Shown here: in pieces, positions 7,679-23,485 of the stretch
Layout of the letters: each line of letters opens with the position of its first letter
How positions within the stretch are numbered: position 1 is the first letter of the stretch
Assembly (NCBI GenBank): GCA_963842945.1
Contig: CAWJIM010000024.1
Location: forward strand, 384,001 to 448,000
Source: an uncultured Gemmatimonadales bacterium
GTDB taxonomy: Bacteria; Gemmatimonadota; Gemmatimonadetes; Gemmatimonadales; GWC2-71-9
Direction: 5' to 3'
DNA length: 64,000 nt
Translations under genes and position numbers: made by a program
The notes under the pieces: generated by a model
Database searches by the model: none
Told to the model about the DNA's origin: nothing
What the model saw: only the letters and a program-made list of their open reading frames with translations

Positions 7679-9128
7679 ATGTCGCGGCTACACTATGCCA
7701 TCATACTGGCCGGCATTTTTGCCTGTACCGATCAAACCGAGCCTCCTCCGGCAGCGAGCCAGCCCGAGGATGTGGCACTGGACGACAATGTGTCGGGTGT
7801 CGAGCTGGAGCTCGATGCCGGGAGAATAGATCGGGAGGCTCACACCGCGCTGTCTGGCGGCGCGACCACCGTCTTCCGGGAAGACGACGAGGCCTTCGAG
7901 ACCGCGGCGCCGAATCTGGCTGGGCTGAACCTCGCAAAACATGAGGCGGGCGACGTGGCGTTCGAGCTGGAGCATGTCGCCGGGTCGGATCCAGCGAATG
8001 GAGGCCTGGGTCCCGTCTTCGACAACGTGTCCTGCGAGGGATGTCATCTGGGTGATGGACGCGGCCGTCCACCGGAAGACGGCCTCGAGTTTCTCCTCGA
8101 TGCTGTTTCGCTCCAGCATCACGGGCCAGGATGCGAACGGTGGTCCTCTGGGAATACCGGGAGGGTTCGGCGGCCAGTTGCAGACGCGGGGGATAGCCCC
8201 AGACCAGGCCGACATTCAGGCCTCGGTGTACTACACACCGACCGAAGGAAGCTTCGCTGACGGAACCAAGTTCCAGTTGCAGGTTCCGCAGTACACACTC
8301 ACCGGACTTTATCCCGGCCTGGCCGTTGGCTTCCTGTTCTCACCTCGAGTCGCACCCGTGGTGTTTGGTCTGGGACTGCTCGAGGCCGTCCCCGCTCTGG
8401 GCATACTCGCCCGCGCGGATCCCCGTGACTTCAATCGCGATGGGATCTCGGGTCGGGCAAACGTCGTCTTCGATGCGGTTCACCGGCGGCAGGCGGTCGG
8501 CCGGTTTGGCTGGAAGGCGAATACTCCGAACCTGCTGCAGCAGACCGCGGGCGCCTACAATGGCGACATGGGCGTGACCTCGGACCTGTTCCCGAGCGAG
8601 TCCTGCGCCGGCCGAACCGGGACGAGCTGTAACACCAGTCATGTCGAGGTGAGTGCGGATATCGTCGGGAATGTCGCGTTCTATACTCAGACGCTCGCCG
8701 TTCCGGCCCGACGTAACCTCAACGATCCAACCACCCGGAGGGGCGAGTACCTGTTCTATGCCTCCGGCTGCGATGGCTGCCACACTCCGACGCTGCGTAC
8801 TGGCCGATTGCAGGGCGTGCCGGAGGTTTCGGGCCAGGTCATCCATCCGTATACCGATCTTCTGGTCCATGACATGGGGCCCGATCTGGCCGACGGTCGT
8901 CCCGACTTCCAGGCATCAGGCAGCGAGTGGCGCACACCGCCGCTCTGGGGCATCGGCTTGGTGGAGACCGTCAACGGGCACAGCCGTTTTCTGCACGACG
9001 GGCGGGCCGGCTCGCTGATGGAAGCGATACTCTGGCATGGAGGAGAGGCCACCCGGGCGCGCGATCGGGTCAAGGCACTGAGCCAACCGGACCGAGACGC
9101 CCTGATCGCGTTCTTGAAATCGCTGTAG
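7679..9128 (+). CDS. Di-heme oxidoreductase family (DHOR/thiol oxidoreductase-like) lipoprotein, frameshift near 8090
   Basis: RBS GGAG; lipobox FAC; GLGPVFDNVSCEGCH, GRFGWKA, CDGCH, PYTDLLVHDMG, WRTPPLWGIG, LHDGRA, AILWHGGEA. Confidence 0.9.
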
Positions 9129-13449: not shown

Positions 13450-14926
13450 TCAGGTGGGTCCCTGCTGACCCCAGCGTTGAGACGGTGGAGGCAAGTCCGG
13501 ATTGCGCAGCGGCGGAATCTTGCTGGTAAACGGCACGCCGGTGATTCGGTCGGTGTTGTCGTCTCGGACCCGATATGCGGCCGGAAAGTCGTCGGTCTGC
13601 TCCATCCAGTCCTGGAGCACGGCGGCCAGCCGGCGCACCTCTTCGGCGTAGCGAGGATCGTCGGCCACGTTCCGAAGCTCCCAGGGATCCGTTTTCAGGT
13701 CATACAGCTCGAGTCGCGCCCGGGGAACCTCGAAAAGCCGGCGCTGCGCCGAGGTGAGCCGGCCGGCTTTCGCTCGAGCCCGCAACGCAAGGAACGACGG
13801 ACTGGCCCCGATGTCGGCGGCGGTGCAGAGCGGTAGGTCGGTGTAGGCATCGGTTCGGATCAGCTTGAACCGGAGGGTGCGCACCGCGCGCTGATGCTCG
13901 TCGCAGTCGTGCCAGTTGCGTTCGCTGAACACGCGGGTGCGTCCGGTGAATTTCGTGGGCTGCGTGAGCAGCTCACTGAAGCTTTGGCCTTGCATCGAAT
14001 CGGGCCTGCCCGCACCCGCTACATCAAGCAGCGTGGGGGTCAGGTCCACGGTGCTCACCAGGCCGCGATCGTACACCGTTCCTGCCGGGATCACGTTTGG
14101 CCAGGAGAAGACGAGCGGTGTCCTGGTGCCGGAGTCGTACAGGGTGCCTTTCTCCCGGGGGAATGGTGCGCCATTGTCGCTCAGGAACAGCACCAGCGTC
14201 TTCTGCCGGAGCCCGCGCCGGTCGAGCTCCGCCAGCATCGTTCCGATGGCATCGTCCATGTGGGCGATGGTGTCGTAATAGTTCACCAGGTCGGCCCGGG
14301 TCTCGGGAGTGTCGGCGAGGTACGGGGTCAACACTACGCCGCCCGGCTTATGCCGGTGAGCTACACTCTCCGGATGATAGGGACGATGCGGCTCGTGAAA
14401 CGCTACCCAGAGAAAAAAGGGCCGGGTGCCGGTGGAATCGAGAAAGGCGGGAAAGACCGCGGCAGTCTGGGGCGAGTACCACTGGAACTGTTTCTCTCCG
14501 TTGGGACCGATATGGGTCTTGGCCATCATGCCGGTGAAGTAGCCCTGTGCCCTGCAAGTAGGCCGGAAGCAGGCGCACTCCGTCGGGCAGCGGAGTGTGC
14601 AAGTCTTCGGTGCGGGTGGCGTGGGAATACTTGCCGGAGAGAATGCTGATACGCGACGGGCTGCACTGCGGGCTGGTGCCGAACGCGTATTTCACCAGCA
14701 GTCCCGATCGAGCCAGGCGGTCGATGTTCGGGGTCCGGATGAGCCTGTTGCCATACACCCCGGTATCCCGCCAACCCAGGTCGTCGGCCACGAAAATGAG
14801 GATGCTGGGATGACTCTCCGAGACACCCTGGGCCCGGGAGGAGGCCGCAGGCAGCAGAAGAATGAGTCGGCGAATCGAGCTCAGCCATGAGCTTCGATTG
14901 GCGAAACTCAGGCCATGGCTTTTCAA
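13450..14926 (-). CDS. Formylglycine-dependent sulfatase, frameshift near 14545; start uncertain
   Basis: FVADDLG, RTPNIDRLA, CSPSRISILSG (CxPxR), SDNG.PFPREKGTLYDSG, ELYDLKTDPWE. Confidence 0.9.
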
Positions 14927-14991
14927 TTGCGCACTCGTTCCATGCTCTGGGGAGTGGGCGGTGACGGAAGTCAGGTACCCTGGCTTCCCTT

Positions 14992-15637
14992 ATGGCAACG
15001 CATTGTGCAAGCTGATGGAAGCGAAGACAAGCCCGACTGGAGTCCAACACCCAACGTATGCCGCCGAAACGAAGAGCCTCCCCAGTTAACCGGAACGCTG
15101 GACGCGATCCGCCGGATCATTCGGATACTGCGGCGCTCCTCCCGGCGGAGCGAGCAGCAGGTGGGCATTGGCGGCGCCCAGCTATTTGTGTTGCAGCAGC
15201 TCGCGGACGCGCCGGCGCGCTCCATCAACGATCTGGCCGCCCGCACTTACACCCATCAGAGCTCGGTCTCGGTGGTGGTTCGGCGGCTGGTCGAGCAGGG
15301 CCTGGTGGCTCGGCAGCCTTCCACCCGTGACCGGCGGCGGCGCGAGCTGAGGCTCACTTCAGCAGGAAAACGCCTGGTTTCCCGGGCGCCGGTACCGGGT
15401 CAGGTGCACCTGATCAATGCCCTGCTCAAGCTGCCCCGGACGGAGCTCAGGAATCTCGAGCGGGGGCTGGATCGGGTGGTGGCGGAAATGGGTGGCGAGG
15501 GTGAGCCGCCGGCGATGCTGTTTGCCGATGAGATGCCTTCAGCTCAGTCCGCCCCGAGGTCGAGCGGCCGCCGGCACTTGTCGCAGAAGACTTCCCGGGG
15601 CAAGCGGAAGACCCGGCCGGCCAGGCCGAGCCGCTGA
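14992..15637 (+). CDS. MarR family transcriptional regulator (start uncertain, probable 5' frameshift)
   Basis: AQLFVLQQL..SINDLAARTYTHQSSVSVVVRRLVEQGLV..DRRRRELRLT. Confidence 0.88.
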
Positions 15638-15984: not shown

Positions 15985-16087
15985 GAAACCATCACAACCC
16001 CGGCTGGGTCACTCTGGCCAGTTCGAGTTTGCTGAAACCCTGATCATACCGTACCTTACAGGAGACTCCCCGAACAACCGAGGTTTG

Positions 16088-17158
16088 ATGCTTCCCCACC
16101 GGCCGCATCTCGTCTCACGGGGCGGATTCGCCGTCCTGTCTGCAATTATCCTCCTCGGCCTGTCACCCAGGATTGCCTCCGGCCAGGGGTGAATGCCGGT
16201 CCGCTTTACGTCACCCAGTCTGGGTGGACATCGACAAGCCATTCTACCAGCCGGAAAATTCGAGCTCGGCCTCTCATATAGAAACCTCAAAGCCGATGAC
16301 TGGATCATTCTCGATACTCTGACCCCGTCAGATGGGTCCAGGGCGCCGGGAGGCGAGCCGAACGTCTTCAACATCAACTCAGTCGATTTCTCTCTCGCCT
16401 ATGGCTTAACCAATCGCGTAAGCTTCCAGCTGACGGTGCCCACCGCGAGCGGCAGCAATTCGCGAATCCATCCCGACGGCATTCGTCACGTCACCAATGG
16501 ATCCGGCATCGGCGACATCAACCTCGTCGGCACCATGTGGCTGCTGGACCCACTCACTCATGGAACTGGCAATGTCGCGGTCGGGCTCGGCGTGAAAGCT
16601 CCCACCGGGAGTAACACGATCACCGGAGATTTCGGCCTTCCCTCGGGAACCGTGCAACATACCGTCCACCCCGGCATCCAAATGGGGGACGGCGGCTGGG
16701 GTATCATCGTGCAGGCCCACGCCTTCAGCAGGCTGGTCGGGAGGCTGTCCGGGTACCTCTTCGGAGCCTACCAGCTGAACCCTCGGAACGTTAGCGAGGT
16801 GACCTTCACGCCGGCCTCGGTGAGTCCCTTATCGGTGCCCGATGTCTACCACGCCCGTTTCGGACTCGCCCTGGCGGTTCTGCCGAGACAGGGGTTGTCC
16901 GCCAGCCTGGGGCTTCGGGCCGACGGCATTCCAGTCCGAGACCTGATGGGAAGTAGCGACGGATTCCGCGCATCCGCTCGCTCCGTCTTCATCGATCCCG
17001 GCCTGTCATGGAGCATAGGCCAGAACGACTTCACGCTGAGTGTGCCGGTTCGGGTGCACGGAGAGTTCTTCCGGGGCCAGCCGCTCCCTGATGGTCAGAG
17101 CGACCGGGGTGACCTCGCCAAGAGGCTGATCTTCCTGGGTTACACCAGGCGACTATGA
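16088..17158 (+). CDS. Outer-membrane beta-barrel (MetA-pathway/phenol-degradation 'transporter'-like) with in-frame TGA at 16190-16192; candidate selenoprotein
   Basis: GAGG RBS; ATG 16088 is in frame with ORF 16193..17158 and gives MLPHRPHLVSRGGFAVLSAIILLGLSPRIASG-QG-TGA-MPVRF. Barrel motifs GIGDI, GLGVKAPTGS, QMGDGGWG; terminal amphipathic strand LIFLGYTRRL. Confidence 0.8.
16210..16229 (+). promoter_or_regulatory. SECIS-like hairpin GTCACCCA-GTC-TGGGTGGAC
   Basis: CACCCAG/CTGGGTG are exact reverse complements; the loop G at 16218 is 26 nt after the TGA and is followed by T. Confidence 0.65.
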
Positions 17159-17340: not shown

Positions 17341-18381
17341 GTGAGTCTGGTCAATCGGTTGCAGGCCGGTTTGGGCCAACGTTACCGGGTCGAGCGCGAG
17401 CTCGGACGGGGCGGCATGGCCACGGTGTATCTCGCGGAGGATATTAAACACGGCTGCCGAGTCGCCCTCAAGGTGCTGCGGCCCGAGATTGGCGCCGCCC
17501 TCGGCGGGGACCGCTTCCTTCTGGAAATAAAGACGTCCGCCGCCTTGCAGCATCCCCACATACTCGGCTTGCTGGATTCCGGTGAAATACTGCCGGACCA
17601 TGGTTCCGGCCCCGGCCTGCTGTTCTACACCATGCCTTACGTCGAGGGGGAATCCCTTCGCGACCGGCTTGACCGCGAGCGCCAACTCCCGTTGGATCAG
17701 GCCATCACGATTGCGCGAGAAGTGGCCGATGCGCTGGGCTACGCCCACACCCACAATGTTGTGCACCGGGATATCAAGCCGGAGAACATCCTGTTGTCGG
17801 GCGGACACGCGATGGTGGCTGATTTCGGCATCGCGAGGGCGCTGAATACGGCGGGTGGTGAAAAGCTGACCGAAACTGGACTCGCGCTGGGCACACCGTA
17901 CTACATGAGTCCGGAGCAGGCCACCGGAGACTTCCTGGACGGCAGAGCTGATCAGTACGCCTTGGGCTGCGTGCTCTACGAGATGTTGGCCGGGACACCG
18001 CCCTTCCAAGGCTCGACCGGGCAATCGATTCTGGCCCGGCACGCCGTGGATCCGGTGCCGAGCCTTCGGACAGTGCGGGCGGCGATCCCGGCGGGGGTGG
18101 AACACGCCATCACCCGTGCCCTTGCCAAGTCGCCGGCCGACCGGTTTTCCACCACGGCCGAGTTTGCCCTTGCCCTGACGCAAGCTGGACAGGTGGGACC
18201 ACGGTAAGGACCAATACGGTCACCTCGCCTTCGTCGGGTGCGCATCGTCACTGGGGGGCACGCGTCGGATGGGCTTTCTTAGCTGCTGCGCTCATAGCAA
18301 TTGGGCTGATCACAACCGTCCGCGCCGTCAGTTCGAAGAAGAGCCCAGTAGTCTCGGCTGCGGAGGGATCCATGCGGTCGA
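17341..18381 (+). CDS. Hanks-type Ser/Thr protein kinase with TM helix (frameshift near 18195), C-terminal domain lost
   Basis: LGRGGMATVYLA, VALKVL, HRDIKPEN, DFGIA, GTPYYMSPEQ. An alternative frame continues RVGWAFLAAALIAIGLITTV..EGSMRS and then runs into the opposite-strand gene. Confidence 0.85.
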
Positions 18382-22935: not shown

Positions 22936-23008
22936 TGCGCCGCGTAGGAATCGAACCTACAACCTAGTGATTAAGAGTCACTTGCTCTGCCAATTGAGCT
23001 AGCGGCGC
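22936..23008 (-). tRNA. tRNA-Lys(CTT)
   Basis: GCGCCGCTAGCTCAATTGGCAGAGC..CT-CTT-AA..GGTTCGATTCC; acceptor stem pairs; CCA not encoded. Confidence 0.97.
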
Positions 23009-23014
23009 GGGTAG

Positions 23015-23086
23015 TAGCCCCAAGGGGAGTCGAACCCCTCTCTCGACCTTGAAAGGGTCGCGTCCTAACCGATAGACGATGGGGCC
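23015..23086 (-). tRNA. tRNA-Glu(TTC)
   Basis: GGCCCCATCGTCTATCGGTTAGGAC..CT-TTC-AA..GGTTCGACTCC. Confidence 0.97.
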
Positions 23087-23099
23087 GTCTCACCTTTCA

Positions 23100-23172
23100 T
23101 AGCGCTAACGGGATTCGAACCCGTGTTTGGGCCTTGAGAGGGCCCCGTCCTAGTCCCCTAGACGATAGCGCC
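23100..23172 (-). tRNA. tRNA-Glu(CTC)
   Basis: GGCGCTATCGTCTAGGGGACTAGGAC..CT-CTC-AA..GGTTCGAATCC. Confidence 0.96.
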
Positions 23173-23179
23173 GTTTCAA

Positions 23180-23326
23180 TGAGCTGGGAGCTAGGAGTCG
23201 GGAGCTAGGAGCTCCGGCCGATCACCAATCTCGGCGCTCATCACAAACACCCACAGCGGTGGAACTGTTTCCGAACCCGGAGCCCAGTACTTATCGATCA
23301 GCTCCCAGCTCCTGGCTCCCAGCTCA
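23180..23326. repeat. Heptamer tandem repeats (gagctag/gagctgg)n with inverted partner (agctccc)n in the tRNA spacer
   Basis: Arrays at 23181-23217 and 23300-23326 are mutually complementary. Confidence 0.7.
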
Positions 23327-23332
23327 TCCGAA

Positions 23333-23405
23333 CAGGCCCGGCAGGACTCGAACCTGCAACCCCCGGTTTTGGAGACCGGTGCTCTACCACTTGAGCTACG
23401 GACCT
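23333..23405 (-). tRNA. tRNA-Trp(CCA)
   Basis: AGGTCCGTAGCTCAAGTGGTAGAGC..CT-CCA-AA..GGTTCGAGTCC. Confidence 0.97.
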
Positions 23406-23410
23406 TCGAG

Positions 23411-23485
23411 GGTGGCTGACGGGAATCGAACCCGCAACCTCCGGAGCCACAGTCCGGCGCTCTAACCGATTGAGCTACAACCACC
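23411..23485 (-). tRNA. tRNA-His(GTG)
   Basis: G-1:C73 pair present; CT-GTG-GC loop; GGTTCGATTCC. Confidence 0.97.

Follow-up and report, generated by a model that had tools for sequence, protein, structure and literature searches.

A putative SECIS hairpin, fdhF-like in design but not in spacing, in a mis-annotated gene for a predicted outer-membrane channel of Gemmatimonadota

Background

The selenocysteine (Sec) insertion sequence (SECIS) of Escherichia coli fdhF is described, in the accessible part of PMC8659212, as a 17-nt upper stem-loop that lies 11 nt from the UGA and has a bulged U17 as well as G23 and U24 in its loop, and this G-U is the contact for SelB. The general bacterial SECIS model, that of bSECISearch, is broader: in the part of the review PMC13188914 available to us it allows a loop of 3-9 nt on a stem of 4-16 bp, asks for a G as the first or second loop nucleotide with G or U as the next one, and sets a distance of 16-37 nt from the UGA to the loop and a minimum free energy (MFE) of at most -7.5 kcal/mol. 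Sec has also been predicted before in an outer-membrane barrel, for the GSU2204 (MtrB/PioB) family NF041027 listed in the accessible part of the same review, and deep-Sep, as far as its accessible text goes, reports a TonB-dependent receptor selenoprotein. Here we describe a hairpin at 16211-16227 (+) of a 64,000-nt stretch of DNA (the window) from an uncultured Gemmatimonadales bacterium (assembly GCA_963842945.1, contig CAWJIM010000024.1, positions 384,001 to 448,000 of the forward strand). The hairpin follows an in-frame UGA at 16190-16192 in a gene that appears to encode a beta-barrel channel of the outer membrane. We consider it highly probable (about 0.93) that the hairpin is a bacterial SECIS, that this UGA is decoded as Sec and that the gene is one open reading frame (ORF), 16088-17158. 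This reading is supported by a hairpin confined to the TGA forms of the gene, by covariation in its stem, by alternation of Sec with Cys at the site and by the Sec machinery of the genome.

The hairpin and its comparison with known SECIS elements

The core of the element is a stem of 7 bp (16211-16217 with 16221-16227) that carries the triloop G16218 U16219 C16220. The pairs between U16211-A16217 and U16221-G16227 are contiguous and include one U-G wobble. In a fold of 16205-16235 the stem can be extended to 16210-16229 (+) by the pair G16210-C16229 if A16228 is bulged, and the 8-bp stem with one bulge that an earlier note on this DNA had described is recovered in this form; the letters at 16210-16229 are GTCACCCAGTCTGGGTGGAC. 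The end coordinate given there, 16232, overshoots the structure by 3 nt. The 17-nt hairpin starts 18 nt past the UGA. Its apical G16218, followed by U, lies 26 nt beyond the A of the UGA, as the note had stated and as is read directly from the sequence; with the U of the UGA counted as 1, the GU stands at +29/+30.

In E. coli fdhF, taken from NC_000913.3, codon 140 is the UGA, and the apex reads GCA-GGUC-UGC, which includes G23 and U24. Both elements are coding-region hairpins just past a Sec UGA, both have a 17-nt upper stem-loop, and both combine an A-U closing pair with a G(G)UC loop (GCA-GGUC-UGC in fdhF, CCA-GUC-UGG here), so that the close similarity of the two apices claimed earlier stands. 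They differ in that the loop has 3 nt here and 4 nt in fdhF, in that the GU lies at +29/+30 rather than at +23/+24, and in that the hairpin starts 18 nt rather than 11 nt after the UGA. The 7-bp stem is also uninterrupted, without the bulged U17, no bulge is conserved in the family, and no conserved lower stem reaching the UGA is predicted for the channel genes. The 'canonical spacing' that had been claimed therefore holds with respect to the general bacterial SECIS model (16-37 nt; PMC13188914) but not with respect to fdhF. As far as these comparisons of sequence go, the element can be called fdhF-like in design but not in spacing.

All four constraints of the bacterial SECIS model agree with the hairpin, which has a 3-nt loop, a 7-bp stem, G followed by U, 25 nt between UGA and loop (16193-16217) and, for the isolated hairpin at 16210-16229, a folding energy of -8.9 kcal/mol; we see no structural difference from the bSECISearch consensus model. 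It also has the other attributes expected of a SECIS, namely a coding-region stem-loop after an in-frame UGA, a UGA that aligns with Cys, a structure found only where the UGA is kept, and a genome that encodes tRNA-Sec, SelA, SelB and SelD.

The hairpin is contained in the MFE fold of 16190-16250 (-15.1 kcal/mol) and is thus the favoured structure; the opposite was one of three outcomes that the earlier note had named as speaking against its claim. The 61-nt fold has a z score of -0.65, with 48 of 200 shuffles equal or better. Single-sequence thermodynamics thus does not set the hairpin apart from shuffles and is not used here as support. In the genome as a whole, 510 of 109,343 TGA triplets (0.47%) precede a comparable hairpin, defined as a G[G/U]N triloop on a stem of at least 7 bp with the loop starting 19-40 nt from the T. 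Since the fold is only mildly unusual and the genome has this background, one sequence alone is weak proof. A scan of the whole genome for TGA followed by a hairpin of at least 6 bp, with open frames of high G+C at third codon positions on both sides, returned 118 candidates, most of them implausible, and the window site was not among them; in a GC-rich genome, then, a hairpin flanked by open frames counts for little as evidence. The evidence that goes beyond chance is that from the comparison of homologues.

Conservation and covariation in homologues

Homologues were collected by six-frame searches, with matches in 14 of 103 genomes of the genus and in 33 of 401 genomes drawn from the phylum, and from a species-representative collection, from which the loci of 80 of 308 relatives were taken in. 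The site was placed by tblastn in 110 of 126 loci, one of the 110 being too near the locus end, and after removal of identical sequences there were 84 distinct sequences of 63 nt. The site codon is TGA in 52 of these, TGC in 25 and TGT in 5, and it is misplaced in 2.

A hairpin with a G[U/G]N triloop is present in all 52 TGA sequences and at that place in none of the 30 Cys sequences. It is therefore neither absent from TGA homologues nor equally conserved in Cys homologues, the two remaining outcomes that the earlier note had held to be fatal. In the TGA set the loop G stands at +29 in 47 sequences and at +26 in 5, the latter being a subfamily one codon shorter. The triloop is GUU in 32, GUC in 18, GUG in 1 and GGU in 1, on uninterrupted stems of 3-9 bp. 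When an 8-pair structure was evaluated on the alignment of the 52 TGA sequences against 500 shuffles, 83.5% of cells paired (75.7% in shuffles) and the covariation score was 0.246 (0.132 in shuffles), with no shuffle reaching either value. When the 3' partner was slid by 1-3 columns, only 32-58% of cells paired and the covariation score did not exceed 0.103. Both positions of pair 24-36 are third codon positions, one in a Ser/Thr codon and the other in a Gly codon; the pair is CG in 16 sequences, GC in 12, AU in 7, GU in 3, UA in 2 and something else in 12. Pair 21-39, the outermost of those evaluated, is a standard pair in 13 of the 47 sequences with letters there, so the eighth pair is not a feature of the family. 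The stem covaries at synonymous positions. The comparison of TGA with Cys homologues that had been proposed as a check on the hairpin thus came out in its favour, with covariation and a 6-bp RNAalifold consensus hairpin (-8.75 kcal/mol) in the TGA set and, from RNAalifold, no pair at all in the Cys set.

Codon choice in the hairpin points the same way. The earlier note had called the codons TCA CCC AGT CTG GGT GGA AT-ending and atypical for this genome. Measured on 512 long ORFs of the genome, this is right for four of the six, TCA (6.1% of Ser codons), AGT (7.2% of Ser), GGT (14% of Gly) and GGA (18% of Gly), which are rare and end in A or T, but not for CCC (35% of Pro) and CTG (49% of Leu), which are common and end in C or G; UUG makes up 6.7% of Leu codons. 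The loop G is carried by AGU in 45 of the 52 TGA sequences, by GGU in 5 and by GUG and AGG in 1 each, and in the +29 type the codon ahead of it is CCC in 40 of 47 sequences. Sec forms with a change from S to G turn the closing A-U into G-U and keep the GUC loop. Four Cys homologues with the same or a similar peptide can serve as natural controls: L046 and L117 (TTPSLGG) use CCG AGC, L112 uses CUG AGC and L110 uses CCG AGU, and all of these break the stem.

Several results, the z score given above among them, weigh against the SECIS reading. Rfam yields no SECIS family, either at the gathering score, where it finds tRNAs only, or at E up to 10 on 16100-16350, where it finds chance matches only. 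The homologues are kin, and the shuffle statistics overstate their independence. Pair 24-36 is a C-C or C-U mismatch in 12 of the 52 TGA sequences. Since CCN (Pro) can pair with GGN (Gly), the peptide alone would give rise to some hairpin. Several Cys forms fold other local hairpins here, with 6-nt loops, and in the Cys form L037 a GU opens an 8-nt loop, as read by eye. On the side of the machinery, the SelA match of the genome (contig 2, 138716-139800) extends over three successive frames in this assembly and may not be intact.

Some of these results would also follow if the hairpin were a by-product of coding the conserved peptide P-S-L-G-G, with the UGA decoded through another element or by near-cognate read-through: the peptide around the hairpin is conserved, the Cys forms too fold local hairpins, and the single-sequence z score is -0.65. 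Such an origin does not sit well with covariation at synonymous third positions, with a rare AGU codon that is near-invariant, with the stem-breaking codons of Cys forms that have the same or a similar peptide, or with a consensus structure in the TGA set only. The GUC triloop is moreover found after the UGA of the genome's own selD and fdhA-like genes, which are described below. We therefore regard a coding by-product as very improbable and retain the reading of the hairpin as a SECIS.

L037 (2407-2469, minus strand) and other Cys forms of the type P-[VI]-[ND]-L-G-G have a one-codon insertion at the hairpin site and a different Pro/Gly hairpin. This alternative hairpin could be the remnant of a SECIS or a by-product of coding.

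Alternation of Sec and Cys and the structure of the gene

The ORF list for the window starts the gene at the ATG at 16193, directly after the UGA, and gives it 321 codons (16193-17158). The frame is open upstream of the UGA as far as the ATG at 16088, and read-through of 16088-17158 would give a product of 356 residues. In translation the first 34 codons (16088-16189, +) form a signal-peptide-like N-terminus, MLPHRPHLVSRGGFAVLSAIILLGLSPRIASGQG, that ends in a conserved [A/G]-Q-G. The UGA at 16190-16192 (+), read as Sec, would be residue 35 of the precursor, and it aligns with TGA in 52 and with TGC or TGT in 30 distinct homologous sequences. The rest of the coding sequence (16193-17155, +) comprises the conserved N-terminal motif MPVRFTSPSLGG and then, according to the alignment, AlphaFold2 and Foldseek, a beta-barrel. 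The gene terminates, by the ORF list and translation, with the TGA at 17156-17158 (+). A GAGG at 16080-16083 (+), 4 nt before the ATG at 16088, resembles a Shine-Dalgarno sequence and may act as one.

TGA and Cys forms have a common frame, ...[A/G]-Q-G-[U/C]-x-P-[IV]-R-F-[TS]-x-P..., and the 30 Cys homologues are continuous ORFs. The TGA forms are labelled Gemmatimonadota, Acidobacteriota and Verrucomicrobiota, with one Spirochaetales metagenome-assembled genome (MAG) and one MAG labelled Chloroflexi. The codon that follows the TGA is ATG in 35 of the 52 sequences, GTG in 3, TTG in 1 and none of these in 13, where it is GCG, GCC, GAG, GTC, CCC, GTA or ATC.

The frequent ATG after the TGA could mean that there are two genes, a short ORF ending at the TGA at 16190 and a second, translationally coupled ORF starting at the ATG at 16193 (TGAATG), and public gene calls do begin at this point; among the best 120 of 795 database relatives, most have about 320 amino acids at 90% query coverage. 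In the Cys homologues, however, the frame is not interrupted, and a split would leave an outer-membrane barrel without a signal peptide and a signal peptide without cargo. Because 13 of the 52 TGA sequences have no ATG, GTG or TTG after the TGA, a stop-start gene pair is excluded as an explanation for the family, and we hold it to be extremely improbable for the window gene. The frame breaks that the assembly shows in SelA, in an fdhA-like gene and in a paralogue on contig 23 could also prompt the view that the TGA arose by nonsense mutation, marks a pseudogene or is an error of assembly, and one might further suppose that UGA is read as a standard amino acid in this organism. The TGA nevertheless recurs at this codon in 52 distinct sequences, which come from many assemblies and span four phyla, the gene itself terminates with TGA, and the tRNA-Trp in the window has the anticodon CCA; the probability of such explanations is close to nil. 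Stop-start coupling, a pseudogene and an alternative genetic code were each rejected on this evidence. If the UGA at 16190 is decoded as Sec, the gene is then a single ORF, 16088-17158.

Three related sequences depart from the common pattern. In an Acidobacteriota homologue (L115, 1504-1566) the TGA is one base out of register and the hairpin is intact, with 7 bp and a GUU loop; its run of C after the TGA is one C shorter than that of its nearest relative, L079. In L127 the Cys is one residue earlier. A paralogue in the genome under study (contig 23, 138425-139430; L019/L020), with 43-49% identity, shares the GQG-TGA-ATG junction; its hairpin has a GUG loop at +26, and its match is split over two frames, by a frameshift or an assembly indel.

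Selenocysteine machinery and sister hairpins

The genome has two tRNA-Sec genes, at 70 and 63 bits, both with the anticodon TCA; they lie on contig 15 (14378-14471) and contig 1 (150251-150344). It also has a SelB wing domain (wing-3), with the C-terminal winged-helix domain on contig 2 around 8835-8963, and a SelD with one in-frame TGA, besides the SelA match in three frames mentioned above. The assembly is rated 6% contaminated, and the presence of two tRNA-Sec genes may be due either to a genuine duplication or to another organism in the bin. An fdhA-like gene on contig 5 (150846-154123) is matched in many pieces across frames, the last of which holds a second TGA. The split SelA and fdhA-like matches may be either assembly indel errors or decaying genes, and these frame breaks bear on whether Sec insertion works in this organism.

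Among other genomes with the TGA form, SelA was found in 19 of 21, the two misses being 91% and 56% complete; for one of the 21 (G305) the TGA was taken from the search table and its position at the site assumed. Of 9 genomes with the Cys form, 6 had a SelA match; the other three, in which none was found, are 96-100% complete.

Two other genes of the genome have similar hairpins after an in-frame UGA. That of selD (contig 19, UGA at 381810) is GGCGCAG-GUC-CUGCGCC, with its loop at +37, and that of the fdhA-like gene (UGA at 153550) is GUCCCCG-GUC-UGGGGAC, with G23 and U24. Both resemble the hairpin of the channel gene in having a GC-rich stem of 6-7 bp and the same GUC triloop; they differ in the position of the loop, +37 and +23 against +29, and in the closing pair, which is G-C or G-U rather than A-U. 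The three sequences are consistent with recognition of all these GUC-triloop hairpins by one SelB, and their positions at +23, +29 and +37 within the same genome are relevant to the range of spacings that one SelB can accept.

By analogy with the established SelB pathway, we infer that SelB binds the hairpin and that Sec is inserted at this site. The C-terminal winged-helix domain of SelB, in complex with GTP and Sec-tRNA(Sec), would bind the apical G-U of the triloop, and the bound complex would be held at the approaching ribosome, so that the UGA at 16190 would be read as Sec and not by release factor 2. The product would consist of a signal peptide, the motif Q-G-U-M-P-V-R-F-T-S-P-S-L-G-G and a FapF/COG4313-like barrel.

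The predicted channel protein

A Pfam search with the read-through protein gave no family at E up to 0.01. In NCBIfam, FapF matches were sub-threshold in 8 of 22 members, the FapF model scoring 11.3 bits against a cut-off of 700, and there was also a weak match to FilC. An AlphaFold2 model built on an alignment of 22 homologues is an all-beta barrel, with a predicted local distance difference test (pLDDT) score of 80.9 and a predicted template modelling (pTM) score of 0.81; over its first 18 residues, the stretch with the Sec and the conserved motif, the pLDDT is below 50. With this model Foldseek found FapF (5o67 and 5o65) at E 6.9e-12 to 5.5e-10 and the COG4313 channel 4rl8 at E 8.9e-10, with overall template modelling scores of 0.60-0.75, and FadL and TodX as weaker matches. 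A profile of the 22-homologue alignment matched the FapF chains at E 7.6e-8. The C-terminus is F (...RF or ...SF) in 15 of the 22 aligned members, and outer-membrane barrels usually end in such aromatic C-termini; the window protein ends in ...GYTRRL. The model thus points to a FapF/COG4313-like outer-membrane beta-barrel as the read-through product. The likeness to FapF and the COG4313 channel lies in this predicted fold; identity is about 14-15%, and the conserved N-terminal Q-G-[U/C]-x-P-x-R-F belongs to the family described here.

By a crude test, a start 18-60 codons upstream together with a hydrophobic core is present in 49 of the 52 TGA and 28 of the 30 Cys homologues. Of the 52 TGA sequences, 51 have AQG or GQG immediately ahead of the site. 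By inspection, G occupies position -1 without exception, Q position -2 and A or G position -3, and [A/G]-Q-G is set off from the hydrophobic core by a polar segment that contains P, R or E. A lipobox has the consensus [LVI]-[ASTVI]-[GAS]-C directly after the hydrophobic core, with the Cys at +1. Judged by inspection, the pattern before the site suits signal peptidase I better than a lipobox, and it is improbable that [A/G]-Q-G-[U/C] is lipobox-like and that the Sec itself is lipid-modified. The Sec would lie at the predicted signal-peptidase cleavage site or at most 2 residues from it and therefore probably at the N-terminal tip of the mature protein. The corresponding N-terminal segment forms a plug in the FapF and COG4313 structures. 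The selenol may serve in redox chemistry, in metal binding or in a selenylsulfide link to a partner.

We lean, by a little, towards the view that these genes form an unlisted selenoprotein family of FapF/COG4313-like channels in soil Gemmatimonadota, Acidobacteriota, Verrucomicrobiota and others, in which Sec is mature residue 1 to 3, the SECIS forces the peptide P-S-L-G and the N-terminal selenol is the working group of the plug. If so, the selenol could serve to capture a substrate, either a metal or a chalcogen, or could link the protein reversibly, through a selenylsulfide, to a partner in the periplasm.

Relation to described selenoproteins

Like NF041027 and the TonB-dependent receptor, as these appear in the accessible parts of their sources, the family would place Sec in an exported outer-membrane barrel protein; these two belong to other folds and families, and in those parts a Sec directly after the signal peptide is not mentioned for them. 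When 22 members were compared with the NCBIfam selenoprotein models at E up to 1 there was no match, and NF041027 was not among their NCBIfam matches at that threshold. The words 'FapF', 'COG4313' and 'phenol' do not occur in the accessible part of the review PMC13188914, where 'outer membrane' and 'beta-barrel' occur once each, in the table row for GSU2204 (MtrB/PioB). Neither 'membrane' nor 'Gemmatimon' appears anywhere in the main texts of deep-Sep and BSepDB. A full-text search found no literature that joins selenocysteine with FapF or COG4313, nor did the literature searched state that the solved FapF or COG4313 proteins contain Sec. For selenoproteins of Gemmatimonadetes, nothing relevant was found among titles and the opening parts of abstracts. 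The putative SECIS is of an ordinary, textbook kind; its host selenoprotein family appears, provisionally, to be undescribed, as it could still be listed in Haft and Tolstoy 2025 or in the supplementary tables that accompany deep-Sep and BSepDB. Those of the best 120 database relatives that are named are called 'hypothetical protein'. As judged from their lengths, most of these 120 relatives are cut short at the UGA, with loss of the signal peptide and of the most conserved motif. The host gene would then be that of a widespread, mis-annotated outer-membrane channel with Sec beside the signal-peptide cleavage site.

Genomic neighbourhood

In the window the channel gene is preceded by a MarR-type regulator (14915-15637) and followed by a Ser/Thr kinase (17341-18207). 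From 80 loci, which were not de-duplicated (at least 3 places occur twice), 151 flanking ORFs were picked and 150 scanned. The genes that flank the channel gene in these loci encode tetratricopeptide repeat (TPR) proteins (38 loci), kinases (9), AhpC/TSA-type redoxins (7), RadC (5) and PAP2 (4). These counts hint at TPR proteins and AhpC/TSA-type redoxins as possible functional partners of the N-terminal Cys or Sec.

Elsewhere in the window there is a cluster of tRNA genes on the minus strand (22936-23484), for Lys(CTT), Glu(TTC), Glu(CTC), Trp(CCA) and His(GTG). An ORF at 13450-14529 (-) covers no more of the Sulfatase profile than its second half (positions 151-301) and also matches SGSH_C. 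The first half of the Sulfatase may sit upstream in another frame, which would be a possible further frame break.

Conclusions

The RNA element described here exposes what would be a systematic annotation error in public databases. If the UGA is decoded as we propose, the family would add an outer-membrane channel to the bacterial selenoproteome, and Sec would be placed at the extreme N-terminus of an exported protein. The 52 Sec and 30 Cys forms would provide a natural experiment on how a SECIS constrains the codons and the peptide in which it is embedded, and the use of selenium would be extended in abundant, little-cultured soil phyla.

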